Positions 601 through 40,442 of a DNA stretch of 51,168 nt are shown piece after piece. The DNA lies in IMG/VR virus record IMGVR_UViG_3300005831_000022; one strand, given 5' to 3'. A program made the translations under genes and the position numbers. Under the pieces are notes generated by a model that worked only from the letters and a program-made list of their open reading frames with translations, was not told the origin of the DNA and did not search any database. Source of the DNA: a virus. How positions within the stretch are numbered: the stretch's first letter is position 1; the number at the start of each line of letters is the position of its first letter.

Positions 601-612
601 TTTCAGTTGAAA
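601..612 (+). promoter_or_regulatory. Mini-hairpin box TTTC-AGTT-GAAA
   Basis: 4-bp inverted repeat around a tetraloop, directly abutting the RBS AAGAGG. Member of a 14-copy family. Confidence 0.6.
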
Positions 613-624
613 GAGGCGAACAAA

Positions 625-1467
625 ATGAACAAAGAACTTTTGGAATCAGGAAGAATCAAAACAGCTATAACTTATTTCGATAATATACTAGAATTACACG
701 AACACCTAACAAAAGAAAAAGGTTTTAATATGCACTTCAAAAATGCAAACGATAGAAGTTCAATGAAAAGTGGTTATGACGGTATACGTTTTACAACTAC
801 AAAATCTTTCGAAGAAGCACTTGACTTGTTAAAGCAAGGTGATTCATTCAACACACAAAACATACTCAATCAAATGAGTAAAATAAAAGTAGCTGATACA
901 AGAGAGGTTGTAAAAAAACTAGGTTTAGACATAGCAGGGTATCAATGTTGTGTGCCTACGTATCTTAACAACCAACCTAATAGCATGTTTAACAAAACAC
1001 GTACCGTTAAGAAAGACAAAGTAATAACATTAGTAAAGTTGTCCTCTTATCCTGTTAGGACAACAGCAGACGAAATAATAAAGTATAATGCTCTATTTCT
1101 TAATACAGTTAAGATGATTGAGCAACAAGGTTATAGATGCAACATAGAGTTGTTGCATGCAAGTATTGGAATGAAAACACATATAATAACAAGAGTTAAA
1201 GTAAAAGACGCAAGTGAACGCCTTAATGTGTCAAAGTTAGCGTTTGTACTTGTTAATCCGTCTTATTCAAGGCGTTGTATGTTTCGCAGGATAGAACTTG
1301 ATGAACATACAACATCTGAATTTTCCAGTGGCTACGGTCTTTCATGTTACACAAAAGAAAAACTAAACACTACACTGTACAAGGTGAACTCGAAACATAT
1401 TATCATAGAATCAATGTTCGGGGAAAAAGAACAAAAGAAATTGATTGATGACGTACAAAGCAAATAG
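625..1467 (+). CDS. Hypothetical protein; possible degenerate vWA-like partner of the downstream AAA+ ATPase
   Basis: ATG 625 lies 9 nt after AAGAGG. Segment VITLVKLSSYP...ALFLNTVKMIEQQGYRCNIELLH resembles the beta1-alpha1-beta2 region of vWA domains, but the MIDAS DxSxS is replaced by KLSSY. The function call is weak. Confidence 0.4.
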   Translation: MNKELLESGRIKTAITYFDNILELHEHLTKEKGFNMHFKNANDRSSMKSGYDGIRFTTTKSFEEALDLLKQGDSFNTQNILNQMSKIKVADTREVVKKLGLDIAGYQCCVPTYLNNQPNSMFNKTRTVKKDKVITLVKLSSYPVRTTADEIIKYNALFLNTVKMIEQQGYRCNIELLHASIGMKTHIITRVKVKDASERLNVSKLAFVLVNPSYSRRCMFRRIELDEHTTSEFSSGYGLSCYTKEKLNTTLYKVNSKHIIIESMFGEKEQKKLIDDVQSK

Positions 1468-1481
1468 AATAGATAACAATC

Positions 1482-1515
1482 AAGTGACCAATAACAAGGT
1501 CACTTTTGTTAGTTT
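1482..1515 (+). terminator. Rho-independent terminator
   Basis: AAGTGACC (1482..1489) pairs with GGTCACTT (1498..1505), followed by TTGTTAGTTTT. Confidence 0.8.
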
Positions 1516-1535
1516 TAAAAGTTATACAAAAAGTG

Positions 1536-1564
1536 TTGACATGTACACATACATAGTGTATACT
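1536..1564 (+). promoter_or_regulatory. Sigma-70/sigma-A type promoter
   Basis: AAAAAGTG-TTGACA (1536..1541), 17 nt spacer, TATACT (1559..1564). Confidence 0.8.
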
Positions 1565-1593
1565 TATACACATGAGATACAACATAAAAAATA

Positions 1594-1605
1594 TGTCAGT
1601 TGACA
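1594..1605 (+). promoter_or_regulatory. Mini-hairpin box TGTC-AGTT-GACA
   Basis: Perfect 4-bp arms, directly followed by AGGAG. Confidence 0.6.
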
Positions 1606-1618
1606 AGGAGATTAAACA

Positions 1619-2734
1619 ATGAACACAATGAAAGTAAACAGAATCGGAAACAGTAAAGTAAATATTGAATATCAAATAGAAGTTGAAACATATAAAGGAA
1701 GAAAATTTAAATCAGAAACTATCAACACATTTGATATGAATGGTAACACATGCTTTTATTTCAAAGGACAGTATTACAAGCTTACAAGTAATACAACATT
1801 CGAGCCACTTAAAAAAGTGACAACAAAGAAAAAAAGCAACACAACAAAAGTTACGTTAACAAATACAACATTTGACGTAACACTTACAACAAAAGAAAAG
1901 ACAGTAACAACCACAACAGAAGAAACACCAACGACAACTACAAACAAGGATTATTCAAAGTTTATGAAACACAATAAACACAAAATGATTCTTGAATGTA
2001 TTAAAAGTAATGTTCCTGTATTCCTTGTAGGTGGTGCAGGAAGTGGAAAGAACTTCACGCTTGAACAAATTGCACAAGAGTTAAAAATGAGTTTTTATTT
2101 TAGTAATTCAGTGCAACATGAATTCAAATTAACAGGATTTATTGATGCAGGTGGTAAGTATCACGAAACGGAGTTTTACAAAGCTTGCAAGGATGCGAGT
2201 GAGGGGAAAGAAGTAATGTTCTTCCTTGACGAAATAGACGCTTCAACGCCTGACGTTCTTATCCTGTTAAATAGTGCCATTGCAAACGGATATTTTGAGT
2301 TTCCAACTGGAAAGCTTACGTTTAACAAGAATATAAAGTTTGTATCAGCAGGAAACACAGTTGGTAATGGTGCTGATGATAGCTATACAGGGCGTTGTTG
2401 CCTTGATATGTCATCACTTGATAGATTCGCTTTAATCAAGTTCGACTATGACATGGAGATTGAATTAGCTATCACAGGGGGTAATACAGACCTTGTGGGA
2501 ATGGTGGAAATGCTTAGAGCGAGAGCAACGACCAATCAAATACGTTGTGTATTCTCATACAGGTGCTTAGAGCAAATCACAGCACTTGAAAAGACAAGTA
2601 TGAAACTAGAAGATATCTTAACAATTACATTACTAAAAGGACTTGATAAAGATACAGCAAACACATTGAAGTTTTCGTCAGACGTGACTTGTAAGTATCT
2701 AAAAGCTTTTAGTAAAGCAATCAAAGGGATGTAG
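1619..2734 (+). CDS. AAA+ ATPase (AAA_5/MoxR-like) with a Thr-rich N-terminal linker
   Basis: Walker A is VGGAGSGKN and Walker B is VMFFLDEIDA. A downstream arginine-containing segment LDRFALIKFDY follows. Good RBS. Confidence 0.8.
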   Translation: MNTMKVNRIGNSKVNIEYQIEVETYKGRKFKSETINTFDMNGNTCFYFKGQYYKLTSNTTFEPLKKVTTKKKSNTTKVTLTNTTFDVTLTTKEKTVTTTTEETPTTTTNKDYSKFMKHNKHKMILECIKSNVPVFLVGGAGSGKNFTLEQIAQELKMSFYFSNSVQHEFKLTGFIDAGGKYHETEFYKACKDASEGKEVMFFLDEIDASTPDVLILLNSAIANGYFEFPTGKLTFNKNIKFVSAGNTVGNGADDSYTGRCCLDMSSLDRFALIKFDYDMEIELAITGGNTDLVGMVEMLRARATTNQIRCVFSYRCLEQITALEKTSMKLEDILTITLLKGLDKDTANTLKFSSDVTCKYLKAFSKAIKGM

Positions 2735-2752
2735 TAACATAGAAAGTTTTGT

Positions 2753-2777
2753 AAGGGGCACAAGTAACACGCCCCTT
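2753..2777 (+). other. Stem-loop without a U-tract
   Basis: AAGGGGC (2753..2759) pairs with GCCCCTT (2771..2777). Confidence 0.5.
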
Positions 2778-2802
2778 GCGTATACAAAGGAACGGTGATA
2801 AA

Positions 2803-2970
2803 ATGGTAATAATTACAATAGTAACAGCTTACGTTACGTTTACAATCTTATTGTATGCGTTAAACGTAAACAGCAAACACCAAGACAAGAAAATAAAAGA
2901 AATGCATACAAGGAGGGTAACACATGTTAGACAGAAAAAATCTACAAATAGTAGAGGTGAAAGAGATTGA
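2803..2970 (+). CDS. Small membrane protein (55 aa), tentative
   Basis: ATG after AAGGAA. Hydrophobic stretch VIITIVTAYVTFTILLYAL. Overlaps the next CDS by 47 nt. Confidence 0.35.
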   Translation: MVIITIVTAYVTFTILLYALNVNSKHQDKKIKEMHTRRVTHVRQKKSTNSRGERD

Positions 2971-3669: not shown

Positions 3670-3803
3670 TAGGGTATATATTTCTACTATTATTTATTAT
3701 AGCTTGTCTATACACCTTATGTGAAGCTATAGCAAGCAATATGAAATGGATAGCACAATTTAGACAATTCAAAAGTTCAATAGAACATCACAATACAAAA
3801 TAG
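3666..3803 (+). CDS. Small membrane protein (45 aa), tentative
   Basis: GTG overlaps the upstream stop and lies 8 nt after GGAGGT. Hydrophobic N-terminus IGYIFLLLFIIACLY. Confidence 0.4.
   Translation: MIGYIFLLLFIIACLYTLCEAIASNMKWIAQFRQFKSSIEHHNTK
3775..3786 (+). promoter_or_regulatory. Mini-hairpin box GTTC-AATA-GAAC
   Basis: Perfect 4-bp arms, 35 nt upstream of ATG 3821. Confidence 0.4.
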
Positions 3804-3820
3804 TGAAAGAGGTAAGAATA

Positions 3821-4279
3821 ATGAAAACGGAACAAATGGAGATATTAAGAAAAGGTAATGTAACACAAGAGAACTTTTTAGATATTATGCTAGAGAGCGT
3901 TAGTGATATCTATACAAAGGGATTCCTTGATGTAAGGATTGATAAAACAGAAGCAGACGTTAAGTGTACATTACGTTACAAGATAGGTACAAAGTATTAT
4001 TACACTTCTTTTGGGATGCGAGAGGTAACAAGAGAGTACAACGAAAGAACATGTGATATTATAAAACAAGCAAACAAAGATTTAATTACAGCATTGGAAC
4101 AAGGAAGCAAGAAAACAGAAGCTGTAATTAATATGGCTATTGATTTATACATCCTTGACGAAATGATGAAAGTACAAAGAACATTATTGATGAAACTGGA
4201 TGAAGATATCACCGATTCCATCCATGATACTGACTATGTAAGGAGTGTATTAAATGATGGTGGCAAACAAGATGATTAA
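3821..4279 (+). CDS. Hypothetical protein
   Basis: ATG lies 8 nt after AAGAGG. Confidence 0.6.
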   Translation: MKTEQMEILRKGNVTQENFLDIMLESVSDIYTKGFLDVRIDKTEADVKCTLRYKIGTKYYYTSFGMREVTREYNERTCDIIKQANKDLITALEQGSKKTEAVINMAIDLYILDEMMKVQRTLLMKLDEDITDSIHDTDYVRSVLNDGGKQDD

Positions 4280-5732: not shown

Positions 5733-5761
5733 TTGACACATGTGATATTGTGTGCTATACT
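5733..5761 (+). promoter_or_regulatory. Sigma-70/sigma-A type promoter
   Basis: TTGACA (5733..5738), 17 nt spacer, TATACT (5756..5761). Confidence 0.8.
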
Positions 5762-5800
5762 ATAACAGTGAGATAAACACGATATCACAAATCTTCAACA

Positions 5801-5812
5801 TTTCAGTTGAAA
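5801..5812 (+). promoter_or_regulatory. Mini-hairpin box TTTC-AGTT-GAAA
   Basis: Identical to the boxes at 601 and 25825. Lies in the leader of the 5848 CDS. Confidence 0.6.
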
Positions 5813-5847
5813 CAAAATAAAATAAACAATCGAAAGAGGTAAAACAA

Positions 5848-6834
5848 ATGAGCGTAAATTATACAGTAAGTCAGGCATCAAAAATAGTAGCAGGAAGTAC
5901 ATTGTCAGAAGAGGTAAAAGATTTCGGAAAAAGATTCCCACTAGCAACTATGCTAGTAACAAAAGCACTAGAGGGAAATCAGGAAGCGTTAATCATGTTG
6001 CTAGGTTCATTACCACAAACAGCTACAATGCTTAAATTAGAGAGAGATTTGAGAGGGGAAGAAAAAGAAGTTGAAACGTTCGCCCCTTGTGAAGAATTAA
6101 TCACAGATAAAGAGCCAACAGGCGAAACACCTTTGACAGTTGTAGACCCTGTTGAAGTAAAGAAGACATCAGAAGTTAAGAAGCCAACAGACAAGCCAAA
6201 TCTTGACGATATGAACAGTAAGCAACTAAAAGCTTACGGAATGTCAATAGGACTAACAGCAAGAAGCCTTGTAGGTGGTAGGGATGCTGTTGTTGCAATG
6301 ATAATGGAAAAGTTAAGTAAAGGCGATACAGGAGCTATCAAAAAGTTACCAATCGAAAAAGGTGTTACACCAACAAAAGCACCTGCTGAAACAAAGAAAT
6401 CAACAGCAACAACAACAGTAACAACAGAAACATCACTATTGGATGATGTAGAAAATAAGTCAGCTAAACAGGTATATGATATCTGTGTGGCGAATGGGGT
6501 TGAAGCAGAGAAACGCCAACCAAAACAGTTCTATGTAGACCTGTTGATTAAACTAGAAGAAGAAAAGAAGAACGAAAAAGAAACAGATACAATTGATTAT
6601 TCAGAAATGAAGCCACAAGAGTTATATAAGCTGTGTAAGGCAAGAGAAATCACAGCAGAAACAAGACAGCCACAAGCATACTACATCGCACTTTTAGAGG
6701 ATGCAGATGCAAAGGAAAGTGTTGAAGAGGACACAGAAACATGGACAGAAGAAGATGACACGGTTGAAGCCGACGCAATCGAAGAGCCTGATTATGGTGA
6801 TATTGAAAAAGAAGCGTCAGCGTGGGAAATCTAA
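5848..6834 (+). CDS. Acidic protein with three HeH/SAP (Rho_N-like) repeats
   Basis: Repeats are SKQLKAYGMSIGL..., SAKQVYDICVANGVEAEKRQPKQFYVDLLIKL and KPQELYKLCKAREITAETRQPQAYYIALLED. Acidic tail ends ASAWEI. Confidence 0.65.
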   Translation: MSVNYTVSQASKIVAGSTLSEEVKDFGKRFPLATMLVTKALEGNQEALIMLLGSLPQTATMLKLERDLRGEEKEVETFAPCEELITDKEPTGETPLTVVDPVEVKKTSEVKKPTDKPNLDDMNSKQLKAYGMSIGLTARSLVGGRDAVVAMIMEKLSKGDTGAIKKLPIEKGVTPTKAPAETKKSTATTTVTTETSLLDDVENKSAKQVYDICVANGVEAEKRQPKQFYVDLLIKLEEEKKNEKETDTIDYSEMKPQELYKLCKAREITAETRQPQAYYIALLEDADAKESVEEDTETWTEEDDTVEADAIEEPDYGDIEKEASAWEI

Positions 6835-8428: not shown

Positions 8429-8440
8429 GTTCAGTTGAAC
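8429..8440 (+). promoter_or_regulatory. Mini-hairpin box GTTC-AGTT-GAAC
   Basis: Perfect arms, 8 nt upstream of AAGGAGG. Confidence 0.55.
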
Positions 8441-8459: not shown

Positions 8460-9332
8460 ATGGAAGACACTAAGAAACAAACAAAGGGAAAGAGTAACAC
8501 GCTAATCTGTGGAACAATGTTGTGTACATTAATGTTAGTAACATCAAATACATTAATAACAAACGCACATACACAAGAGGTAAACCCAAACATACCAATT
8601 GTAAAGACTACAGTACAACCAACACAAGGAACAATATGTTATCAGGAACATGGTGACAATTGCATGTGTGATAAGTTCGTGGATAATACAATCCCTGTTG
8701 TAACTGTTAAACCCACACACACAGCGACAGCAACAGCAACTAAAGAAGCCTTGACGGATGTGTTAACTGGCAAAACAACAGTTTACAAAGTAGGAAACAC
8801 AATAGTTACACCACAACCAACAACCAAGCCAACACTAAAAGAAGAACAAGCCAATGCAACAACTATACAAATAAACAAAGCAATGGCATCAAGCTACAGT
8901 AAAGGGAAACCTTACAACATCCCTTTAAGTGCAGACCTACAAAGACACATAATTAACAAATGTAAAAAGTACGGTATCAGTCCAAACATTATCATAGGGA
9001 TGATTGATACAGAATCCACCTTTGACCACAATGTAATGGGTGATTACGGTCATAGCTATGGATTAATGCAAATACAAAAGCGTTACCATTACGACACAAT
9101 GAAAAGATTAGGATGCTATAACCTTTTAAACTCATACGATAATGTAAACGTAGGTATTGATATATTCGCACACCTATATTACAAATATGGTAACTACCAT
9201 AAAGCCTTGATGGCTTATAATGGTGGGGAGGGATACGCAGACTATAGAATCAAAAGGGGTATATTGCGTTCTAAGTATAGTAGAAAAGTAATGAACAAAG
9301 CATACCATTATAAAGCCATTCGCAAATATTAA
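8460..9332 (+). CDS. Secreted lytic transglycosylase (SLT domain)
   Basis: N-terminal signal/TM segment LICGTMLCTLMLVTSNTLI and a Thr/Pro-rich linker. SLT motifs are IDTESTF, YGLMQI and AYNGG. Confidence 0.8.
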   Translation: MEDTKKQTKGKSNTLICGTMLCTLMLVTSNTLITNAHTQEVNPNIPIVKTTVQPTQGTICYQEHGDNCMCDKFVDNTIPVVTVKPTHTATATATKEALTDVLTGKTTVYKVGNTIVTPQPTTKPTLKEEQANATTIQINKAMASSYSKGKPYNIPLSADLQRHIINKCKKYGISPNIIIGMIDTESTFDHNVMGDYGHSYGLMQIQKRYHYDTMKRLGCYNLLNSYDNVNVGIDIFAHLYYKYGNYHKALMAYNGGEGYADYRIKRGILRSKYSRKVMNKAYHYKAIRKY

Positions 9333-9486: not shown

Positions 9487-9515
9487 TTGACAACCAATTC
9501 AACACATGCTATACT
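9487..9515 (+). promoter_or_regulatory. Sigma-70/sigma-A type promoter (extended -10)
   Basis: TTGACA (9487..9492), 17 nt spacer, TGcTATACT (-10 at 9510..9515). Confidence 0.85.
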
Positions 9516-9553
9516 ATCAAAGTACCAAGTAGTTGATTGGTAACAACAAAATA

Positions 9554-9565
9554 TTTCAGTAGAGA
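9554..9565 (+). promoter_or_regulatory. Mini-hairpin box TTTC-AGTA-GAGA
   Basis: The arms pair only if one U-G wobble is allowed. Directly followed by GAGAGGAAA. Confidence 0.5.
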
Positions 9566-9580: not shown

Positions 9581-9958
9581 ATGAGTATTATTTACAAATT
9601 GTCGACAGACAAAAGGTGTGAACTACAGGCGATACAAGTAAACGCCAATAACATCTATGACAAAATGAGCGAAGCAATAGGAAACACAATGGAACACGTA
9701 CACGTTAAAGGACTTGATGAAAACAACATTACAATGTTTTGTGATGATGAATTTCTTTTGAACAAAAAACAAGAGTTAGAAAACGTGTCAATTTACCTGT
9801 TTTACAAGAACCTACCTATATTAGGTAATGTTATCTTTGCAGGATTCGACAAGGGAACAGGTGATAGCTTGCCACTTACAAGCGAACAAATCACCATCAT
9901 ACAGAAACTAATCAAGAAGACTACAATTGCAGGCATTGGCATTGCATACGTAGAGTAA
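9581..9958 (+). CDS. Hypothetical protein (DUF3846-like?)
   Basis: C-terminal pattern ILGNVIFAGFDKGTGDSLPLTSEQ recalls DUF3846 proteins. This is recalled from memory only. Confidence 0.35.
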   Translation: MSIIYKLSTDKRCELQAIQVNANNIYDKMSEAIGNTMEHVHVKGLDENNITMFCDDEFLLNKKQELENVSIYLFYKNLPILGNVIFAGFDKGTGDSLPLTSEQITIIQKLIKKTTIAGIGIAYVE

Positions 9959-10037: not shown

Positions 10038-10066
10038 TTGACAAGTGTTTCAATACATGTTACACT
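10038..10066 (+). promoter_or_regulatory. Sigma-70/sigma-A type promoter (extended -10)
   Basis: AAAAAGTG-TTGACA (10038..10043), 17 nt spacer, TGtTACACT (-10 at 10061..10066). Confidence 0.8.
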
Positions 10067-10093
10067 GTAAAAGTAGCAGATAGCTACAAAATA

Positions 10094-10105
10094 ACTCGAT
10101 AGAGT
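10094..10105 (+). promoter_or_regulatory. Mini-hairpin box ACTC-GATA-GAGT
   Basis: Perfect arms, directly followed by AGGAG. Confidence 0.55.
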
Positions 10106-10118: not shown

Positions 10119-10385
10119 ATGAAAACAATTTACGACGTTAAAACAATATTAAAGAGAGCACACAACATAAAGAAACAAGCAGGATGCACAATGTCAGAAG
10201 CTCTAAAGTTTTCATGGGCTATCGAGAAAAAAGAAATCGAAATCAGAACGTACAACGCACGTTTTGACGGTGAAGTAGTAACTTGGTCTATATGGACGGG
10301 TTACGGTAAAGTAAGAGCATATTACACATGTTCATGGCGTTCAAAATACGCAGACGCTAAAAAGACAAACTTTGTAAGCATGTAA
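10119..10385 (+). CDS. Hypothetical protein (88 aa)
   Basis: Good RBS. No motif recognised. Confidence 0.6.
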   Translation: MKTIYDVKTILKRAHNIKKQAGCTMSEALKFSWAIEKKEIEIRTYNARFDGEVVTWSIWTGYGKVRAYYTCSWRSKYADAKKTNFVSM

Positions 10386-10746: not shown

Positions 10747-10793
10747 CTTAAAACATAAATTAAGCACAGTAGTGCAACAAGGAGGAAATAAAA

Positions 10794-11252
10794 ATGGAAA
10801 GATTTAAAACAAAGGTACAAATAATAAAAATCGGGGATATAATGAACACGATTGACGTCGTGTGTAACAATAGATTTTGTTTTACTTACGACCAATGTGC
10901 ACGTGATGGTACAGACGAATGTCTGTATTGTGCACACGGTGACAGTCACGGTAATTGTGGTATACTTGATGTGTCAGAGTGTGTTATAACTAAGGTAAAA
11001 AAACGTAACCTAAACGATGGTTACAAAAAGATACGTTTTGCGAAAGAATCAAAACACCCAAAAGTTAGACTAGGATTATTGAAAATCTTTCAAGAGGTGT
11101 ATTCTGAAAGTATGGAATGTAATGTTGTTGTGTATCAAATCGACGAACCAAATAATCGTATTTGGGCACAAAGAAAAAGTTGTAAACCGTCGAAGTGCTT
11201 TTTCGTAAAGCATTTAGATATAAACGACATATCAGAAAAAAGAGAGGTGTAG
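10794..11252 (+). CDS. Cys-rich protein
   Basis: RBS AAGGAGG. About 10 Cys in the first 65 aa (CNNRFC...C...CLYCAHGDSHGNCG...C). Confidence 0.6.
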   Translation: MERFKTKVQIIKIGDIMNTIDVVCNNRFCFTYDQCARDGTDECLYCAHGDSHGNCGILDVSECVITKVKKRNLNDGYKKIRFAKESKHPKVRLGLLKIFQEVYSESMECNVVVYQIDEPNNRIWAQRKSCKPSKCFFVKHLDINDISEKREV

Positions 11253-11781: not shown

Positions 11782-11810
11782 TTGACACGCTTACAAACAT
11801 GTGTTAACAT
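11782..11810 (+). promoter_or_regulatory. Sigma-70/sigma-A type promoter (extended -10)
   Basis: AAAAAAGTG-TTGACA (11782..11787), 17 nt spacer, TGtTAACAT (-10 at 11805..11810). Confidence 0.75.
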
Positions 11811-11816
11811 ATAGAA

Positions 11817-12032
11817 GTAACAAACAGTTAGTAAACAGCAAGACACGAAACACTTGCGAATCTCTAAACCGTTACCACTGTAAAGCGTAACCGTCCGACA
11901 CATAGGAAGTGATTGTGTGTGCTGTATGTGAAATAGTGAAACACATGAGCCAAACGCACTCGCAAGGAATGAGCGTTAAAATCCACGCACTTCTCACACA
12001 GGGGTGCGTAATGTTAAAAACATAAAAAAATA
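11817..12032 (+). ncRNA. Long structured 5' leader / candidate cis-regulatory or small RNA
   Basis: About 245 nt between the predicted +1 and ATG 12061, with no plausible ORF and locally higher GC. Helices: CTTGCGA (11853..11859)/TCGCAAG (11960..11966), GTTAC/GTAAC, CACAT/ATGTG, ACGCAC (11985..11990)/GTGCGT (12004..12009), ATGTT/AACAT. Confidence 0.45.
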
Positions 12033-12044
12033 GCACAGTGGTGC
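12033..12044 (+). promoter_or_regulatory. Mini-hairpin box GCAC-AGTG-GTGC
   Basis: Perfect arms, 3 nt upstream of AAAGAGG. Confidence 0.5.
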
Positions 12045-12060: not shown

Positions 12061-12888
12061 ATGATTACATACAAAAATATTAAATTCAATGAGAAAGTTT
12101 CAAAGAAAAGAGAAACATTATTTAAAATAGGCATGAGTGTAATAGAGTGTAAGAGAGTTATGGAAGAAAAAGAAACAAATTTTATTTTAGACATATCAGA
12201 TACAATTGATTCGGTAAATAATACTCACATAATGTCAAAGGCAATAAAAACGTCTATGATGATTATTGAAGAATTAGGACTATATAGATACAGTAACAAA
12301 ATGTTACAAAGTGTTAATGAATTTTTGAGCAATAAAACTATAAAAGAGGTATTTACAGTTGTTTTACAGGCTTATGAATTTTTCGCAATTCAAAATGATA
12401 CAGCAAAAGAAAAGATACTACGTTTTGAAAGTTTTGAAAAATTCATTGACAGTATATTTAAATTTTCTGTGTATGAGTTAAGAACTATTGTAACACTAGA
12501 AGAAATTATATCAAGTGTAAGCTATGTATGTGAGCGTGTGTACACACAAGTTCAAACAGTTGTAAATTTAACACCACATGATATTGTAATTCTAAATGAA
12601 GATGGTACAGAAAAGATTGTGTACAAAAGTGAGGGTATCGCTAGAGTATCAGCAACACAAACTTTATCTTACCAATTCACAGACCAAAACTGTTTACAAC
12701 ATGACGTATATAAACCGTCATACGGTGAAGTATCAGGATTGCCAGCACAACAAGACGGATTCATGTACATAGTATCAGGGATGGTAAAAAGTGCCCTACC
12801 TGATAGAAATGATTGCATATGTCCAAATGCACTGTTAATGGTACGTGAAAACGGTGTACCAAAAGGCACACAAGCATTTCAGGAATAA
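12061..12888 (+). CDS. Hypothetical two-domain protein
   Basis: Helical N-terminal half. The beta-rich C-terminal part (LTPHDIVIL...GIARVS...GLP...YIVSGMV...R.D...P...VRENG.P.G) resembles an uncharacterised phage/plasmid domain that I cannot name. Confidence 0.55.
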   Translation: MITYKNIKFNEKVSKKRETLFKIGMSVIECKRVMEEKETNFILDISDTIDSVNNTHIMSKAIKTSMMIIEELGLYRYSNKMLQSVNEFLSNKTIKEVFTVVLQAYEFFAIQNDTAKEKILRFESFEKFIDSIFKFSVYELRTIVTLEEIISSVSYVCERVYTQVQTVVNLTPHDIVILNEDGTEKIVYKSEGIARVSATQTLSYQFTDQNCLQHDVYKPSYGEVSGLPAQQDGFMYIVSGMVKSALPDRNDCICPNALLMVRENGVPKGTQAFQE

Positions 12889-12912
12889 CAAAACAAATAA
12901 CTAAGTATAGTA

Positions 12913-13800: not shown

Positions 13801-13841
13801 CAAATAAAAGGCAAAAAAGTGTTGACAATGCCTTTTATTTG
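13801..13841 (+). terminator. 13-bp hairpin terminator whose loop carries the next promoter's -35
   Basis: CAAATAAAAGGCA (13801..13813) pairs with TGCCTTTTATTTG (13829..13841). The loop is AAAAAGTGTTGACAA. Confidence 0.65.
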
Positions 13842-13850
13842 TTATATAAT
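13822..13850 (+). promoter_or_regulatory. Sigma-70/sigma-A type promoter
   Basis: TTGACA (13822..13827), 17 nt spacer, TATAAT (13845..13850). Confidence 0.85.
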
Positions 13851-13884
13851 AAGAGAGTAGTAAGTAATTACTTGCTAACATCAA

Positions 13885-13896
13885 TGTCAGTAGACA
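13885..13896 (+). promoter_or_regulatory. Mini-hairpin box TGTC-AGTA-GACA
   Basis: Perfect arms, directly followed by AAGGAG. Confidence 0.6.
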
Positions 13897-13911: not shown

Positions 13912-14172
13912 ATGATAACATTAGAAATGGTAAAAGAAAATATGCAATCAATGGTTGCATGTACATTCACAAAAGAAGAATTGGAAGATGTGTGTATAAT
14001 ATCTTTCCAAGATTACGAAGAAAACGACACAAGCGAAATAATATTTTCGCAACTAGGAAGAAACACATTTACAGCATACGTAAACAGCGAAGATGGAAAT
14101 GGTTACATCATAGAAACATCAAGCCATGTTGTAAATGGTGAAAATGTGTTTTTAGTTGAAGAGATAAGGTAA
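13912..14172 (+). CDS. Hypothetical acidic protein (86 aa)
   Basis: Good RBS. The overlapping 13755..14141 ORF is rejected. Confidence 0.6.
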   Translation: MITLEMVKENMQSMVACTFTKEELEDVCIISFQDYEENDTSEIIFSQLGRNTFTAYVNSEDGNGYIIETSSHVVNGENVFLVEEIR

Positions 14173-14180
14173 ACAAAGTT

Positions 14181-14252
14181 TCGCACTCTATAACAGGTAT
14201 AGTAAACGTTTATAACCAACAAACGTGTGTGGTTCAACTCCACTAGTGCGAA
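14181..14252 (+). ncRNA. tRNA-like element (non-canonical cloverleaf, no encoded CCA)
   Basis: Perfect 7-bp acceptor stem, TCGCACT (14181..14187) with AGTGCGA (14245..14251). Canonical T-arm GTGG-TTCAACT-CCAC. Total length 72 nt. The D region is a 5-bp/5-nt hairpin (CTATA-ACAGG-TATAG). The anticodon stem CGTTT/AAACG closes a 9-nt loop ATAACCAAC, and the variable region is only 1-3 nt. Confidence 0.45.
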
Positions 14253-14331: not shown

Positions 14332-14343
14332 TGTCAATAGACA
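14332..14343 (+). promoter_or_regulatory. Mini-hairpin box TGTC-AATA-GACA
   Basis: Perfect arms, directly followed by AAGGAGGG. Confidence 0.55.
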
Positions 14344-14356: not shown

Positions 14357-14503
14357 ATGTTAGATAAAATAAATGACTTCTTTAGTAAGTCGCAAACAAC
14401 AGAACAAGACATGAAAAAGCGTGTAAGCACAAAAGAGGCTACAAGACACATGTCAAAGATTCAACGTGTAGTAATAGACAACACAAAACATACTAAAAAG
14501 TAA
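14357..14503 (+). CDS. Small hypothetical protein (48 aa)
   Basis: ATG 7 nt after AAGGAGGG. The track ORF 14225..14503 is trimmed because its 5' part overlaps the tRNA-like element and hairpin. Confidence 0.5.
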   Translation: MLDKINDFFSKSQTTEQDMKKRVSTKEATRHMSKIQRVVIDNTKHTKK

Positions 14504-15693: not shown

Positions 15694-17025
15694 ATGTTAG
15701 TAAACAAAGAAATTAATGAAGCGTTTAAAGATTATATCTTTGATTGGGATTACAAAACATACTTATCTCTAGGTGGTTACGGTTCGTCTAAATCATACCA
15801 CACAGCGTTGAAACTAATACTAAAACTGTTTGCAGAGAAACGAAAAGCGTTAGTAGTTAGAGAAGTGTATGATACACTAAAGGAATCAACGTTTGACCTT
15901 ATATTCGAAATACTAGATAGTATGGATATGTTAGAAGAAGAGAGTAACAAGGGTAGAACAACAAAGGTGCGTTTCAGAGTGTCACCATTACAGTTCGTGT
16001 TTCCTAATGGCTCACGTATCATATTTAAAGGAATGGACAGTCCTAGTAAAGTAAAGAGTATTAACAATGTATCTATAGTATGGATAGAAGAAGCAAGTGA
16101 ATTAAAGTATGCAGGTTACAAAGAGTTATTAGGGCGTGTACGTTGTTACGGTATGTCACTACATTTCATATTAACAACTAATCCTGTAGGTATGGAAACA
16201 TGGGTCTATACACACTTCTTTAAAAGTGTAAACGAACTAGGTGAAGAAACAATTGTACTAGATGATAAAGACTTATACAACAAGAAAGTAATTGTATGTA
16301 ACAACACATATTACCATCATAGTACAGTGGATGATAACAAGTTTATAAACCCTGAATACATACAAACACTTGACGAACTAAGAACATATGATGATACCTT
16401 ATGGAGGATAGCAAGGTGGGGACGTTTCGGTGTTAACGGTTTACGTGTGTTACCACAATTCACAGTTGCAAAGAACCCAACACAGTTTGTTAATGCTATA
16501 CGTAAGTTACCTATTAGTTCACATTATTTCGGTATGGATTTTGGATTTGAAACATCATACAATGCAGTGATATCATGTGCTGTAGATATACAAACAAAGA
16601 CATTATATATATACGATGAAATATACATTAATAACATAACAGATGATGTAATGAGTGAACATCCTAAGATGGTGAAACATAAGATAATGGAACACGAACT
16701 AGTAGCAGATAACGAAGACCCAAAAGCTATATCGTTCTATAGAAGATGTGGTTACAAGATGCGTGGTTGTCGTAACAAGTTTGCAGGTTCACGCTTATCT
16801 AATACAAGAAAGTTAAAACGTTTCAAACGTATTGTGTGTAGTCCTACATGTGTAAACGTAATAAGAGAATTAAAGAGTTTAACATATAAGATAAACAGGC
16901 AAGGTAAACTAATCTATGATGAATTCAATATTGACCCTCATACATTCAGTGCCTTGTGGTATGCATTAGATAACGTAACAGTGGCAGACGTAAAACATGA
17001 GAAGAGAAACAATAAAAGAGGATGA
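15694..17025 (+). CDS. terL: Terminase large subunit (PBSX/Terminase_3-like)
   Basis: Walker A-like GGYGSSKS, Walker B VWIEEASE, C-terminal nuclease region. Size and position fit. Confidence 0.9.
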   Translation: MLVNKEINEAFKDYIFDWDYKTYLSLGGYGSSKSYHTALKLILKLFAEKRKALVVREVYDTLKESTFDLIFEILDSMDMLEEESNKGRTTKVRFRVSPLQFVFPNGSRIIFKGMDSPSKVKSINNVSIVWIEEASELKYAGYKELLGRVRCYGMSLHFILTTNPVGMETWVYTHFFKSVNELGEETIVLDDKDLYNKKVIVCNNTYYHHSTVDDNKFINPEYIQTLDELRTYDDTLWRIARWGRFGVNGLRVLPQFTVAKNPTQFVNAIRKLPISSHYFGMDFGFETSYNAVISCAVDIQTKTLYIYDEIYINNITDDVMSEHPKMVKHKIMEHELVADNEDPKAISFYRRCGYKMRGCRNKFAGSRLSNTRKLKRFKRIVCSPTCVNVIRELKSLTYKINRQGKLIYDEFNIDPHTFSALWYALDNVTVADVKHEKRNNKRG

Positions 17026-21400: not shown

Positions 21401-21476
21401 CGTGGTGCATAACCATTTCAGAGAAATTACAAACGCAGAAATAGACGCTATAGTAACAGAGACATTACAATCATAA
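18471..21476 (+). CDS. Fibre/receptor-binding protein with short collagen-like triplets and a GH5 (cellulase-family) domain
   Basis: GLDGADGKDGSQ and GNAGTDGEDGVG triplets. GH5 landmarks are FNGMRFEL, LLNMH, GYGLMNEP (acid/base Glu), HIYH and HIGEFG (nucleophile Glu). Confidence 0.7.
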   Translation: MSTKTTTSNVTQLTLETAVYNSIVFSDTFPYFCIKNTTEGNIYVSTNNNFANTDDDVTIIAGGSSAVILNNNKSTLYIKASNTGVINVIGLNSFMMLFSGGSQGGGTGLDGADGKDGSQIYYGTTITGTTATGTIFVDSGVLSANVGDYYMNTNAGNVNEGNMYYCVTAGASDVAEWVYIICLKGNAGTDGEDGVGTETATKTTAGVIKVSDDFTLTGAGSDTLELPKRDKLRNMLVDDKFKSMFIQWNVAYSYDALKVQVNDTYTKLHSTSTGNKQAWDGVTLENGHTYIAMVNARCNSSGTDACRMKINLANSPFTEYGLVTIPISANFGNYGFRYTNNTGTNNYCQFSIQEPTTHALDVDLVYCVLIDITDTDMIDMTYAEIRDRYLNDYDCTYKGYVYFDIQKKLEYALTDIREDEEEVIYPRMNTSRYTKNFWRTNGTKFVDGAGNEVIFRANNVGNDCTNINSIAGSDLIESTNGYSEDHNEDSYRELKELGFNGMRFELNYIFFEGAGNRVIDNTLAGNPSDYNPNAWAWLDREIALARKYDIKLLLNMHVYSGMGGWEIATHNIWTTADSRTRFVNLWKAIATRYKNEDIIIGYGLMNEPVITAQVDNATTIAIYQNLMNLTCTEIRKVDTNHILFVEQALRDTNNDSTLNSNNNFVDVLNNGVPDDKYCWEAHIYHDMSITHEMSASKHLSINYPNEFATFNTGSQYDWVDNTAVFVNIPVDTPNQTEWTTFETVLKIPHANCKLISPFIRIRDAFGGEVWQFCDYKISIYDSNNNFVEDIFIDNAQYGAIFNGGVLGTMTNPQLQGATELGYMQLVSNALSGNTTTVMMNETPASARWRIPAGYKYKISAKYRVQNISSSVIFRFYIGADEINSANVTNTAERFEYYVDTYKTSCDAKNIPLHIGEFGANYKSITQFERGGDLWVRDAFSVLRKKQINYSYFSYSGSDFSMYRGMPKYYLREQKLYDVVHNHFREITNAEIDAIVTETLQS

Positions 21477-25771: not shown

Positions 25772-25800
25772 TTGACACACATATTAATATGTGATATTAT
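25772..25800 (+). promoter_or_regulatory. Sigma-70/sigma-A type promoter (extended -10) inside the head module
   Basis: AAAAGTG-TTGACA (25772..25777), 17 nt spacer, TGaTATTAT (-10 at 25795..25800). Confidence 0.8.
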
Positions 25801-25824
25801 ATAAGAGTACCAAACAGGTACACA

Positions 25825-25852: not shown

Positions 25853-26149
25853 ATGAATACTAGAGAATTTAATAAATTGTTAGAAATGAATGAAACAAAG
25901 AAAAACCAGTTCATGAAAGTGTACGACATAACAATGAACTACACAAGTGATACAGGTTGCACAATTACACAAGAATGTTACCCGAACGAAACTCTTATAA
26001 GAATAATAATTGAGGGTGTGAAAAGTAAGTTTACAATTACTTTTAATCCTATAACGATGGAGTTAGGAAGAAAGCCAAGAAATGTAAAACCTTATTTCAC
26101 AAAAGAAGAGACAGGGTACATGAGTGACATACTACAAAATAGAATGTAA
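25853..26149 (+). CDS. Hypothetical protein (moron gene 1)
   Basis: Has its own promoter and a terminator downstream. No motif recognised. Confidence 0.6.
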   Translation: MNTREFNKLLEMNETKKNQFMKVYDITMNYTSDTGCTITQECYPNETLIRIIIEGVKSKFTITFNPITMELGRKPRNVKPYFTKEETGYMSDILQNRM

Positions 26150-26161: not shown

Positions 26162-26173
26162 AGTCAGTAGACA
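26162..26173 (+). promoter_or_regulatory. Mini-hairpin box (A)GTC-AGTA-GAC(A)
   Basis: 3-bp arms. Atypically placed before a terminator rather than an RBS. Confidence 0.35.
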
Positions 26174-26187: not shown

Positions 26188-26210
26188 CCACGCAAATGCG
26201 TGGCTTTATT
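26188..26210 (+). terminator. Rho-independent terminator
   Basis: CCACGC-AAAT-GCGTGG followed by CTTTATT. Confidence 0.8.
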
Positions 26211-38579: not shown

Positions 38580-38627
38580 ATGAACACACAAGATAAAAAT
38601 AAAAACCTTAATAAAGGAGATTCAAGC

Positions 38628-39146: not shown

Positions 39147-39192
39147 TATAAACGTATTGACTGACAGCATGTTGAAACTCACAGATTTAATT

Positions 39193-39270
39193 TTAAGCAC
39201 TTGTAACCTATGCGACGGTATGTAAACCTACCTAGTGTATTTACAGGTGCTTAAATTTGATTTTAGAGCG
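39193..39270 (+). terminator. Large-loop hairpin terminator closing the late operon
   Basis: TTAAGCACTTGTAA (39193..39206) pairs with TTACAGGTGCTTAA (39241..39254), with one G-U pair. ATTTGATTTT follows. Confidence 0.65.
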
Positions 39271-39304
39271 TTTTAAACAATTTTAACTTTTTTTAAAATA
39301 TATA

Positions 39305-39333
39305 TTTACAAATTAAAACATTTATGATATACT
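39305..39333 (+). promoter_or_regulatory. Sigma-70/sigma-A type promoter (extended -10)
   Basis: TTTACA (39305..39310), 17 nt spacer, TGaTATACT (-10 at 39328..39333). Confidence 0.7.
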
Positions 39334-39360
39334 TAAGGAGTGTTAAAAACACAGAGAATA

Positions 39361-39372
39361 TTTCAATTGAAA
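39361..39372 (+). promoter_or_regulatory. Mini-hairpin box TTTC-AATT-GAAA
   Basis: Perfect palindrome, directly followed by AGAGGAAAA. Confidence 0.6.
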
Positions 39373-39386
39373 AGAGGAAAAGAAAA

Positions 39387-39671
39387 ATGAAAAAATGTCT
39401 ATGGGTATCATCCCAACCAATCACAAGGGAACAAAAGTCACAAATAATGGAGAGGTTACAATGTAATTTCGTTTGTGACTTATGCGACAGGGAAATTGAT
39501 TCTGTCGATGTTCTGTTTGAAATGGCAGAACAAAGCGATACAATTATTGTAGATATGGCAACAGCCCCGAAAGAGGTTGTAAGCTGGATAGATACAATAA
39601 TAAACCTTGCACCTATTAAGGGTAAACAGATAATAATCTTACGTGATAGACGTAAGAACAACAGAAGATAA
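39387..39671 (+). CDS. Hypothetical protein (94 aa)
   Basis: ATG after AAGAGGAAAAG. The track start at 39324 would overlap the promoter. Confidence 0.55.
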   Translation: MKKCLWVSSQPITREQKSQIMERLQCNFVCDLCDREIDSVDVLFEMAEQSDTIIVDMATAPKEVVSWIDTIINLAPIKGKQIIILRDRRKNNRR

Positions 39672-39687
39672 GAAAAGGAGTAAACAA

Positions 39688-39918
39688 ATGGCGTTACATC
39701 AAGAAAATAAATGGTGTTTCGTCATTTGTATTCACAGGAAGATTCTGCGTTTTGCCTGTTGGATTGACAACACAGACGCATTTGTGAAGTACCTACATGA
39801 ACAAGGTTATGAGTTCATAAAAGTATTTGAGCCTGTACGTACAGATGACGGACTAGACCACCTTACAGACGAACAAATGAAAGAAATAATAAAATTAAAG
39901 AAAGAGTGCATAGCATAA
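39688..39918 (+). CDS. Hypothetical protein (76 aa)
   Basis: ATG 8 nt after AAAGGAG. Confidence 0.55.
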   Translation: MALHQENKWCFVICIHRKILRFACWIDNTDAFVKYLHEQGYEFIKVFEPVRTDDGLDHLTDEQMKEIIKLKKECIA

Positions 39919-39930
39919 GAGGGAAACGAA

Positions 39931-40263
39931 ATGAAAGCAAATTTGAGACTACTAAACGTAAAAGATTCGTGTAAGGTTGCATTAGATTCACATTGCATCA
40001 CACACGACAGCATATTGTTAACAAACTTGTGGGATGGTAACACAGTAATTGCAAGTATAGACGGTATAATAACAAAATGCACAATTGGGACAGTTGACGA
40101 TTTTACTACACGTACAAACAAAAACCTAGGTAATAAAATATTTATTACTTTGAGGGTGCAAGCAGATGAAAGCATTGGAATAACAAGGGAGTACAAGTTT
40201 TCACTTACATGCACAGCATCAAAAGACGGAAAAGATAATTTTGTAGTTCATAGAATACAATAA
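39931..40263 (+). CDS. Hypothetical protein (110 aa)
   Basis: RBS AGAGGGAAA upstream of the ATG. Confidence 0.55.
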   Translation: MKANLRLLNVKDSCKVALDSHCITHDSILLTNLWDGNTVIASIDGIITKCTIGTVDDFTTRTNKNLGNKIFITLRVQADESIGITREYKFSLTCTASKDGKDNFVVHRIQ

Positions 40264-40271
40264 AAAAACAA

Positions 40272-40300
40272 TTGACTTTTTACCTGACATATGATATACT
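40272..40300 (+). promoter_or_regulatory. Sigma-70/sigma-A type promoter (extended -10)
   Basis: TTGACT (40272..40277), 17 nt spacer, TGaTATACT (-10 at 40295..40300). Confidence 0.8.
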
Positions 40301-40306
40301 TATATA

Positions 40307-40430
40307 GTCGGACGATATCCGACAAGCCTTGTGATATTACCCATGATATCGGTGTACGTGTTTGTCAGTCATGTACATTACACAGTCAAACGTGTACAAG
40401 GCTATTACTGTAATTACAGTAAATAAAATA
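40307..40430 (+). ncRNA. Structured 5' leader with mutually exclusive helices and an 18-bp perfect palindrome
   Basis: GTCGG/CCGAC (40307..40323) competes with CGATATC (40313..40319)/GATATCG (40345..40351). AGCCTTGT (40325..40332) pairs with ACAAGGCT (40396..40403). Palindrome TTACTGTAATTACAGTAA lies at 40405..40422. Confidence 0.5.
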
Positions 40431-40442
40431 CCTTGATAAAGG
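40431..40442 (+). promoter_or_regulatory. Mini-hairpin box CCTT-GATA-AAGG
   Basis: Perfect arms. The 3' arm overlaps the RBS AAGGAG. Confidence 0.5.

Follow-up and report, generated by a model that had tools for sequence, protein, structure and literature searches.

The 51,168-nucleotide (nt) virus sequence IMGVR_UViG_3300005831_000022 from IMG/VR (hereafter the window, meaning this whole stretch of DNA) carries a family of about 18 mini-hairpins, all of them on the plus strand. To judge from its sequence, the element is very probably an RNA hairpin which is coupled with a Shine-Dalgarno (SD) sequence and located in the 5' untranslated region, within the ribosome-binding region of first cistrons, i.e. 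those whose translation is initiated de novo. It appears to be a real gene-expression signal that has apparently not been described. The reading as an RNA hairpin is based on base pairing kept among paralogous copies and at an orthologous site of related phages, on the single-strand orientation, on a U-G wobble in one copy, and on a position tied to the SD sequence. RNA rather than single-stranded DNA is taken to be the active form.

A preliminary description of this DNA had listed 14 twelve-nucleotide elements of the form A-NNNC-RRTN-GNNN-A. All 14 were recovered with the positions and loops given to them, and all are real members of the family; four further copies (10764, 12900, 38606 and 50494) had been missed (Table 1). 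Among the 14, copy 26162 has only three pairs plus an A-A mismatch, and 40431 closes with U-A instead of C-G. The U-G wobble reported for 9554 was confirmed, and the trailing A of the pattern is absent at 601, 5801, 9554 and 25825.

Counted literally, with pairing ignored, the pattern A-N3C-RRTN-GN3-A was not enriched in the window (35 found vs. 30.0 ± 5.4 expected), and a pairing-aware search was substituted for it. Strict hairpins, with four Watson-Crick pairs (the closing one C-G) around an RRTN loop, occur 20 times on the plus strand vs. five times on the minus strand, and two of the latter five are reverse readings of self-complementary plus-strand sites. Dinucleotide shuffling of the whole window yielded 3.1 ± 1.8 strict hairpins, with a maximum of nine in 500 shuffles. 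The count against shuffled controls and the other strand that had been proposed at the outset is thus negative for the literal pattern and positive once pairing is taken into account. Non-coding DNA, which makes up 11.5% of the window, harbors 14 of the 20 plus-strand hairpins (2.4 per kb vs. 0.13 per kb in coding DNA); only 0.35 were expected there from shuffled intergenic DNA, and the maximum in 1000 shuffles was three. Six strict matches lie in genes and the one at 2813 within a small hydrophobic open reading frame (ORF), which is near the chance rate. The latter, a probable ORF (2803-2923, MVIITIVTAYVTFTILLYALNV...) that is unannotated, has its own SD sequence.

Pairing was further assessed on plus-strand C-RRTN-G cores, a test that involves no selection for pairing. 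All three outer positions were complementary in 14 of 24 intergenic cores vs. 6 of 145 coding cores. This comparison is cleaner than an alignment of 16 copies, which were partly chosen for pairing and in which 98.4% of the cells are paired with 19 double-sided changes; none of 500 shuffles reached that, and when the register was slid only 36-52% of the cells were paired. A covariance model built from the copies gave 29 of its 30 window matches (E ≤ 10) on the plus strand and added copies 38606 and 12900. Core pairing, double-sided changes and strand distribution are in keeping with the earlier proposal of an RNA hairpin and not with a fixed double-stranded DNA operator. A tally of G-U vs. A-C mismatches, meant to separate RNA from DNA, was dominated by noise from coding sequence.

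Every copy has an A directly 5' of its stem, and on the 3' side the adjoining base is a purine with the sole exception of C at 5801, so that a fifth pair never forms. In most copies the invariant A at position -1 is part of an AAUA flank. Loop position 3 is U in all 16 aligned copies and in the later-found copies 12900 and 38606. AGNN loops are present in 10 of the 18 copies, with AAUA, GAUA and AAUU also used, and an RRUN loop is found in 11 of the 15 SD-proximal hairpins of this genome. Stems vary: UUUC/GAAA occurs in four perfect copies plus the U-G variant at 9554, UGUC/GACA in three copies plus an imperfect one, GUUC/GAAC, GCAC/GUGC and CCUU/AAGG in two copies each, and ACUC/GAGU, GUAC/GUAC and ACUA/UAGU in one each. 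Predicted free energies range from -0.2 to -5.1 kcal/mol, the copies of UUUC/GAAA type (including 9554) reaching only -0.2 to -0.5 kcal/mol. These values make a role as a roadblock or as a passive stabilizer, the latter being one of the functions initially suggested, unlikely.

Sixteen copies sit 10-38 nt upstream of a start codon, while two (12900 and 26162) have no adjoining start codon and lie between a stop codon and a terminator-like stem. As had been noticed before, most copies directly precede the ribosome-binding site (RBS): the gap between hairpin and SD core is -2 to 9 nt in 13 of the 16 start-linked copies and 22-26 nt in three. Relative to random placement within each intergenic region, this location is significant (Fisher combination of per-copy values, p ~1e-3). 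In the five long intergenic regions (184-298 nt) the hairpin is always found in the final 31 nt before the start codon, with at most 19 nt from stem to ATG. The SD core is overlapped, by 2 nt, in copies 38606 and 40431 only; GGAG or GAGG is free in the other 14 start-linked copies, with gaps of 0-26 nt. Two of the distant copies, 3775 and 5801, belong to leaders (3784-3824 and 5811-5851) that are 71% identical 3' of the hairpin (..AAATA..GAAAGAGGTAA..ATG), so the gap of 22-23 nt represents a duplicated leader type and not two independent events.

All ten strong sigma-70-like promoters of the window carry a mini-hairpin in their leader, in line with the earlier observation on promoter leaders. 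Spacing between -10 hexamer and hairpin is variable (17 to 222 nt), as is that between the predicted +1 and the hairpin (11 to 216-230 nt). Given this variability and the narrow SD gap, the hairpin tracks the SD sequence and not the promoter. Copies 10764 and 38606 lie in short gaps between genes without a promoter, which ties the hairpin to independently initiated cistrons. Tightly coupled downstream cistrons lack it. For the holin gene, whose SD sequence is partly formed by copy 38606, ATG 38628 is the probable start.

To place the element in an evolutionary context, related phages were analyzed. A large group of uncultured phages of about 50 kb, with roughly 220 members, has the gene order of the window (DnaE, RecA, DUF7192, ATPase, RNase H, TerL), and the window phage belongs to that group at roughly family level. 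Orthologous leaders of the ATPase gene, which in the window carries copy 1594 (UGUC-AGUU-GACA), were collected from distant relatives with synteny, namely the loci L133 and L135 and 80 IMG/VR loci identified by protein profile; 57 of them are distinct. In 28 of the 57, a tetraloop hairpin with a stem of at least 4 bp has its end 6-18 nt upstream of the ATG, vs. 5.9 ± 2.2 in shuffles (maximum 15 in 1000 shuffles). Examples are aaag-UUUUC-AGUU-GAAAA-ggag, UUCUC-AGUU-GAGAA, GUUC-AAUU-GAAC, UUUCA-AGUU-UGAAA, GAGC-AGAA-GCUC, UUCCG-AGAA-CGGAG and CCUU-AGAA-AAGG. When these hairpins were aligned, 93.6% of the cells were paired with 37 double-sided changes, which none of 500 shuffles reached; as the aligned sequences were chosen for pairing, the shuffle test on the 57 leaders is the unbiased one. 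The check for covariation in related phages that had been suggested is thus positive at this site. Stems of the relatives measure 4-5 bp, the 5' flank is AAAG, and loop positions 1-2 are A-G in at least 90% of the aligned orthologous leaders.

The signal extends beyond the ATPase leader. SD-proximal hairpins were found in 176 of 728 distinct intergenic leaders of the relatives vs. 100.8 ± 9.6 in shuffles. Over-represented loops were AGAA (15), AGAG (12) and AGTT (12), compared with 1.5 for AGAA in the shuffles and, for AGAG and AGTT, values below 1.1, the lowest shuffle value listed. The density of AGNN hairpins on the plus strand of the relatives was mildly higher in intergenic than in coding DNA (0.48 vs. 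0.38 per kb). Judged by these counts, the signal seen across the family is specific to SD-proximal positions. The SD sequence itself forms the 3' arm in many relatives, with an anti-SD-like pyrimidine tract as the 5' arm, and the two arms covary (UUCCA..UGGAG, GUCU..GGAC, UCCUU..GAGGA). Such SD-sequestering versions are present in L010, L133, L135, L045, L153 and other relatives, e.g. UCCU-AAAG-AGGA-GG and UUCCA-AGAU-UGGAG, as well as UCCUU-AGAG-GAGGA at the DUF7192 leader; they are often preceded by AAGU or AAAG. Two loop types can coexist within one relative genome, with AGAG at one leader and AGUU at the next. The density of hairpins per intergenic leader is highest in the window phage (13/31), followed by L010 (7/17), while leaders of the cultured family member Clostridium phage CS266P3 mostly lack a hairpin. 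By these comparisons, the element is not peculiar to the window phage: SD-proximal mini-hairpins with AGNN loops occur family-wide, and it is a variant of them.

The strict form typical of the window is itself at background level in 80 TerL-anchored loci (84 on the plus strand, 51 on the minus strand; 1.2 Mb) and was not found in the closest capsid and DnaE relatives. A recurrent strict match in L030-L035 was dismissed because it lies in coding sequence with synonymous loop changes. Pattern scans of IMG/VR with AATANNNCAGTTGNNNAGGAG gave 51 matches, none of them complementary, and scans with TTTCAGTTGAAARGAG, a pattern that misses GAAAAGGAG, gave mostly unrelated single matches.

A cmscan of the whole window against Rfam 15 (both strands, E ≤ 1) returned no match, and no described equivalent of the element was found, which agrees with the initial statement that no such phage element was known. 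We regard it as a new variant among RBS-proximal regulatory hairpins and phage start-associated repeats. Lambda boxB, the T4 RegA/RegB targets, CsrA sites, SD-sequestering thermometers, 5' stabilizers and the AGNN substrates of Rnt1p, all compared below, share one or two traits each with it but differ in at least one tested defining feature. The closest described phenomenon is that of the start-associated sequences (SAS) and extended start-associated sequences (ESAS) of Cluster K mycobacteriophages (PMC3203893). SAS occur in 11-19 copies per genome, nearly all in one orientation, directly upstream of the start codons of a gene subset; they are kept at orthologous genes, an inverted repeat closely precedes about half of them, and they are suspected to act in translation initiation (PMC3203893). 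The SAS has the fixed sequence GGGATAGGAGCCC of 13 bp, which includes the SD sequence, and the ESAS is a 17-bp imperfect inverted repeat of conserved sequence (PMC3203893). The likeness is confined to architecture, with about 18 copies in one orientation, 16 of them before start codons, and conservation at the leader of the ATPase orthologue. In contrast to SAS and ESAS, the arms of the window hairpins vary freely and only pairing, loop and flank are kept; the hosts also differ (Actinobacteria vs. a probable Firmicute). The sequence GGGATAGGAGCCC itself has a single match with three mismatches in the window, inside a gene, vs. 1.5 expected.

As to its mode of action, we tentatively favor an operator model, in which a trans-acting factor would recognize the hairpin by reading its loop and short helix, although we consider this short of an even chance. 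Candidates for the factor are an RNA-binding protein of phage or host and the platform of the 30S subunit. As the site lies inside the 30S footprint, its occupancy would set translation initiation and hence the fate of the mRNA; about 16 transcription units might thereby be controlled at once as a post-transcriptional regulon. Both the binding of the factor and the direction of its effect are presumed. A trans-acting factor is favored because loop and flank are constrained beyond what folding needs, because the hairpins are too weak for passive blocking and yet their pairing is perfectly kept, and because copies located 22-26 nt from the SD sequence or beside terminators keep every feature. 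This tolerance in position argues against SD occlusion or helix stacking and fits a bound factor or an enzyme. Many copies with a common loop and shape but varied stems are the pattern expected of a regulon governed by a structure-reading RNA-binding protein.

Several points weigh against a trans-acting factor. No RNA-binding regulator was recognized among the approximately 50 phage proteins screened against Pfam and PHROGs, and the sole candidate reader, the protein encoded at 40455-40952, was singled out by fold resemblance only, with TM-scores of ~0.3. In this protein of 165 amino acids, a Rho_N (SAP-like) domain at the N-terminus is followed by a five-stranded SH3-like barrel at the C-terminus (model pLDDT 90.8) whose best fold matches, of a generic kind, are KOW-like domains of Ski2/Mtr4, KapB, Tudor, and Sm/LSm proteins. 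The combination of Rho_N and SH3-like barrel is common to about 205 cluster representatives, and a sequence search against the PDB gave no match. The protein may bind nucleic acids, and a mini-hairpin precedes its own gene. Further, the 5' arm in the relatives is usually a pyrimidine tract complementary to the SD sequence or its 5' extension, and the purine loop there can be taken for a portion of an extended SD; an anti-SD module acting in cis would account for this without a protein. A single reader would also have to tolerate both the AGAG and AGUU loops of one relative genome, and the element, largely missing in CS266P3, is dispensable in some lineages. Finally, the RNA form, the transcription start sites and the binding are all deduced.

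A bolder version of the operator reading, which we regard as speculative and rather doubtful, is that the RRUN/AGNN hairpins are operators of a post-transcriptional regulon in which a dedicated structure-reading protein or endoribonuclease switches translation or stability of first cistrons together. Its reader might be phage-encoded (e.g. the Rho_N and SH3-like-barrel protein at 40455-40952) or a host factor of Clostridia. Such a regulon would be a Gram-positive counterpart of RegA/RegB of phage T4, acting via prokaryotic recognition of AGNN loops and with a copy number that varies across the family of ~50-kb phages. T4 RegA sites are unstructured AU-rich stretches over the AUG, and RegB cuts inside the GGAG of SD sequences. 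The global translational operators of T4, including RegA sites and RegB cleavage, have been reviewed (PMC3014915). The likeness is that many early mRNAs of one phage carry a common short RBS signal for joint control by one protein; the difference is that neither T4 signal is a covarying hairpin upstream of the SD sequence, and no homologue of RegA or RegB was detected in the phage proteins by Pfam and PHROG scans. Unlike targets of CsrA/RsmA, none of the 18 window loops contains GGA, although some relatives have AGGA loops. Hairpins with AGNN loops are substrates of the yeast RNase III Rnt1p, which is eukaryotic, needs a long duplex below the loop and cuts 14-16 bp away. The term AGNN tetraloop is placed in context elsewhere (PMC3867540). 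AGNN loops prevail among the orthologous leaders of the relatives and in the window as described above, but the window stem has 4 bp (4-5 bp overall) and is ended by an A-R mismatch instead of continuing into a duplex of more than 14 bp. No RNase III and no protein with a double-stranded RNA-binding domain was found in the phage.

A cis-acting module of the RBS context, an option missing from the functions proposed earlier and added here because of the SD-pairing arms of the relatives, is the main rival and a possible though doubtful explanation. The pyrimidine-rich 5' arm would be an anti-SD mimic that pairs with the SD sequence or with a purine tract just 5' of it; the weak, breathing hairpin so formed would set the rate of 30S loading via a standby site and SD accessibility and block mispairing of the SD sequence with the upstream leader, and the 3' tail of 16S rRNA would displace it without any dedicated protein. 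In the relatives the 3' arm is often the SD sequence (UCCUU-AGAG-GAGGA, GUCU-AGGA-GGAC, UUCCA-AGAU-UGGAG, CUCU-AGAA-GGAG) and the 5' arm covaries with the SD variant, and UUUUC-AGUU-GAAAA-GGAG puts an extended SD-like purine run into the 3' arm. Within the window, the CCUU/AAGG copies (38606 and 40431) overlap the SD sequence and UUUC/GAAA copies yield GAAAGAGG. Low stability would suit an element that has to be opened by the ribosome. A further point in favor is its confinement to sites of de novo initiation, with tightly coupled downstream cistrons lacking it. However, most window copies are clear of the SD core and have stems that are not SD-like (GCAC/GUGC, GUAC/GUAC, UGUC/GACA, ACUC/GAGU), three copies lie 22-26 nt upstream, and two have no adjoining start codon. 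A cis-acting module leaves unexplained why U is invariant at loop position 3 and why an A flanks the stem on its 5' side, and at -0.4 kcal/mol a hairpin would have very little tuning effect. Expression platforms and RNA thermometers of the fourU and ROSE type contain hairpins that sequester the SD sequence by means of an anti-SD tract close by. As in these, a pyrimidine tract 4 nt upstream pairs with the SD sequence in relatives and in two window copies. The window stems, in contrast, are shorter and weaker, the loop is conserved, and the element recurs at many unrelated genes within a single genome; pairing of the SD core within the hairpin, found in many relatives, is absent from 16 of the 18 window copies.

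A signal for an endoribonuclease is unlikely. According to this proposal, a host or phage RNase would cut the A-rich tract 5' of the hairpin (AAAUA here, AAAG in relatives) or the loop; variable leaders would thus be trimmed to a uniform 5' end consisting of hairpin and SD sequence, and cleavage at 12900 and 26162 would part the upstream ORF from its terminator, scenarios which we likewise hold to be unlikely. The conserved single-stranded 5' flank with its invariant A at -1, mostly AAUA in the window and AAAG in relatives, would suit such a signal, as would its independence of SD distance, which accommodates the far copies and the two terminator-proximal ones. Structure-guided cleavage by RNase Y upstream of a duplex in Staphylococcus aureus provides a precedent, but the guide structure there is a 24-bp duplex and not a 4-bp hairpin (PMC5449607), and the consensus of RNase Y in Bacillus subtilis is weak and delocalized (PMC11780869). 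Cleavage would also discard the stabilizer-like stem-loop found at the 5' end of many leaders (see below), and a 4-bp hairpin would presumably offer little shield against a 5' exonuclease. Apart from RNase H, screens of the phage proteins did not reveal any RegB-, Cas6- or other RNase-like protein.

Very unlikely, in our estimation, is a nut/boxB-like role in antitermination, in which the nascent hairpin would recruit a factor to RNA polymerase for read-through of terminators between short transcription units. One copy per strong-promoter leader fits this role, as do the extra copies 26162 (before the terminator at 26188-26203) and 12900 (before a terminator-like stem) between the stop codon of a first gene and a terminator; lambda nutR likewise sits between first gene and terminator. 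Lambda boxB has a 5-bp stem with a GNRA-like pentaloop and a boxA nearby, and occurs about twice per genome, once per early transcription unit. Similar features are the short hairpin in nascent leader RNA and the purine-rich loop. In contrast to boxB, the window element has an RRUN tetraloop on a 4-bp stem flanked by A-R mismatches, occurs in about 18 copies and is coupled to the SD sequence; such tight coupling to SD sequence and start codon is not expected of nut sites, and copies 10764 and 38606 lie inside promoterless operons. Matches to the boxA-like sequence YGCUCUUUA with one mismatch numbered 23 in the window vs. 27 expected, almost all on the minus strand and none beside a hairpin. 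No N-like protein was recognized in Pfam and PHROG scans, for which such peptides offer no reliable profile.

An element acting as DNA, be it a palindromic operator of a dimeric protein or a hairpin extruded from single-stranded DNA as a priming or nicking signal or an N4-type hairpin promoter, is highly improbable: several copies are near-perfect 12-bp palindromes (TGTCA-GT-TGACA, TTTCAATTGAAA), and with all genes and possibly replication running in one direction strand bias alone does not part transcription from replication, but the arms vary between sites while being complementary within each, a pattern that a dimeric reader of double-stranded DNA does not give, the loop is asymmetric and constant in orientation, one copy pairs by U-G, which would be C-A on the other strand, and the position follows the SD sequence and not the promoter. 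For an N4-type promoter in particular, a transcription start 5-11 nt 3' of the hairpin would remove the SD sequence, which in 13 of 16 copies begins at most 9 nt past the stem, and none of the screened phage proteins showed an RNA polymerase domain. Three further ideas were dropped: a -35-like reading of loop and 3' arm (TTGACA or TTGAAA), as no -10 element lies downstream; coaxial stacking on the SD-anti-SD helix, as the unpaired 3' tail of 16S rRNA would clash and the distance to the SD sequence is too great in five copies; and a resemblance to the tRNA D arm (positions 8-26, shortened loop), which was too speculative.

Gene expression in uncultured phages of Firmicutes is almost unexplored beyond promoters and terminators. 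The compact RNA signal defined here, 12-14 nt long and easy to mutate, accompanies almost all first genes of one phage that are translated independently, and it is met again, with compensatory base changes, in a large family of ~50-kb metagenomic phages. If a factor reads the hairpin, it would control most transcription units of the phage at once. If the hairpin acts in cis, the array of 5' stem-loop, A-rich spacer, mini-hairpin and SD sequence would be a portable RBS-context part of natural origin that could be used to design expression in Gram-positive hosts. Either way, the covariance model and the list of copies help to annotate leaders and true start codons, such as that of the holin gene.

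The leaders in which the mini-hairpin is embedded usually have the order promoter, 5' stem-loop, A-rich spacer, mini-hairpin, SD sequence and ATG. Folding indicated that a separate 5'-terminal stem-loop opens at the predicted +1 G, 7 nt past the -10 hexamer, in seven of the ten strong-promoter leaders; stems include GUAGC..GCUAC and GUCGGA..UCCGAC. Stabilizer stem-loops of this kind (aprE, ermC, T7 phi10 leader) must sit at the very 5' end and be reasonably stable. The mini-hairpin resembles them as a stem-loop in the leader of strongly expressed genes near a strong SD sequence, but it is weak and located downstream of the predicted +1. The separate stem-loops do have these properties, the start sites being predicted, and their folds make them probable 5' stabilizers of systematic design.

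Table 1. Mini-hairpins, strong promoters and 5'-terminal stem-loops of the window
Feature	Position	Strand	Context
Mini-hairpin UUUC-AGUU-GAAA	601-612	+	SD GAGG adjoins; leader of DUF7192 gene 625-1467
Mini-hairpin UGUC-AGUU-GACA	1594-1605	+	1 nt 5' of GGAG; leader of AAA ATPase gene 1619-2734; position orthologous to hairpins of relatives
Mini-hairpin GUUC-AAUA-GAAC	3775-3786	+	22 nt 5' of SD, gene 3821-4279; leader paralogous to 5801 leader (repeat D17)
Mini-hairpin UUUC-AGUU-GAAA	5801-5812	+	23 nt 5' of SD, gene 5848-6834
Mini-hairpin GUUC-AGUU-GAAC	8429-8440	+	9 nt 5' of SD core, SLT transglycosylase-domain gene 8460-9332
Mini-hairpin UUUC-AGUA-GAGA, one U-G wobble	9554-9565	+	adjoins SD of gene 9581-9958
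Mini-hairpin ACUC-GAUA-GAGU	10094-10105	+	1 nt 5' of SD core, gene 10119-10385
Mini-hairpin GCAC-AGUA-GUGC (GCACAGTAGTGC), newly found	10764-10775	+	promoterless 47-nt intergenic gap; 5 nt 5' of SD core, gene 10794-11252
Mini-hairpin GCAC-AGUG-GUGC	12033-12044	+	end of ~245-nt structured leader; gene 12061-12888
Probable mini-hairpin ACUA-AGUA-UAGU (ACTAAGTATAGT), newly found, A-U closing pair	12900-12911	+	between stop codon of gene 12061-12888 and terminator-like stem; no adjoining start codon
Mini-hairpin UGUC-AGUA-GACA	13885-13896	+	2 nt 5' of SD core, gene 13912-14172
Mini-hairpin UGUC-AAUA-GACA	14332-14343	+	2 nt 5' of SD core, gene 14357-14503
Mini-hairpin UUUC-AGUU-GAAA	25825-25836	+	4 nt 5' of SD core, gene 25853-26149
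Mini-hairpin AGUC-AGUA-GACA, imperfect (three pairs and A-A mismatch)	26162-26173	+	past stop codon of gene 25853-26149; 14 nt 5' of terminator 26188-26203
Mini-hairpin CCUU-AAUA-AAGG (CCTTAATAAAGG), newly found	38606-38617	+	3' arm is part of SD AAAGGAG of holin gene
Mini-hairpin UUUC-AAUU-GAAA	39361-39372	+	1 nt 5' of SD core, gene 39387-39671
Mini-hairpin CCUU-GAUA-AAGG, U-A closing pair	40431-40442	+	3' arm overlaps SD of gene 40455-40952 (Rho_N-domain protein); end of ~150-nt structured leader
Mini-hairpin GUAC-AGUG-GUAC (GTACAGTGGTAC), newly found	50494-50505	+	26 nt 5' of SD of ORF from GTG 50544 crossing contig junction to 548
Strong sigma-70-like promoter, TTGACA-17-TATAAT, mostly after AAAAAGTG	555-583	+	leader carries mini-hairpin
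Other nine strong promoters	1536-1564, 5733-5761, 9487-9515, 10038-10066, 11782-11810, 13822-13850, 25772-25800, 39305-39333, 40272-40300	+	leaders carry mini-hairpin
5'-terminal stem-loop GUACC-AAACA-GGUAC	25807-25821	+	leader fold; start site inferred
Other 5'-terminal stem-loops	5768-5788, 9523-9542, 10073-10087, 13858-13877, 39340-39352, 40307-40323	+	leader folds; start sites predicted

Two long, strongly structured leaders lie between a strong promoter and a mini-hairpin, at 11817-12032 (~245 nt, -63.6 kcal/mol) and 40307-40430 (~150 nt, -46.2 kcal/mol). Neither had a match in Rfam, and their predicted folds suggest that they could be riboregulators or small RNAs. The leader upstream of copy 14332 contains a tRNA-like cloverleaf (14180-14252; -18.7 kcal/mol, z = -2.3), for which neither ARAGORN nor Rfam made a call. 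Its acceptor stem measures 8 bp, its D arm 5 bp and its anticodon arm, which carries a 9-nt loop, 6 bp; the T-arm loop is UUCAACU. A tRNA-like sequence, recognized from the T-loop motif GGTTCGAATCC alone, is also present in the relative L135, in the gap 3' of the ATPase gene.

Bases 1-120 of the window recur as an identical 120-nt copy at 51049-51168, which gives a unit length of 51,048 bp and identifies the window as a complete phage genome, either a circular assembly or terminally redundant. Its G+C content is 35%, and all genes are on the plus strand. The structural module is of the siphovirus type, with TerL (15694-17025), an SPP1-like portal, an E-type major capsid protein and a tape-measure protein; lysis genes encode a lysin with CHAP and SH3 domains and a holin, and the replication module comprises a DnaE-type polymerase, a primase, RecA, RNase H and the AAA ATPase. 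Megablast of 25 kb of the window against phage GenBank records gave no match. The best match of the major capsid protein among 5.8 billion proteins was 67% identical and that of the ATPase 60%, and the sole DnaE locus matched in IMG/VR had 46% identity; by these searches, the phage is without a close relative in anything searched. The cultured Bacillus phage PM1 has only a TerL relative in common with it and does not share the early module. With PM1 and CS266P3 examined, no cultured phage emerged as a ready model for experiments. Named members and matches to metagenome-assembled genomes of the ~50-kb group point to Clostridia, and together with the CHAP and SH3 lysin this makes a Firmicute the probable host.

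Residues 483-705 of a 1001-amino-acid protein encoded between the lysin and structural genes (18471-21476) match a domain of glycoside hydrolase family 5 (cellulase; E = 7e-19), and the protein could be a depolymerase or a receptor-binding enzyme. Adjoining the genome junction, an AT-rich region of ~1.1 kb (49458-50543) with little convincing coding capacity has promoter-like sites at 50087, 50294, 50395 and 50480 and numerous short repeats of the GTAATA/TATAAT type. The region may have a control function or contain a replication origin.

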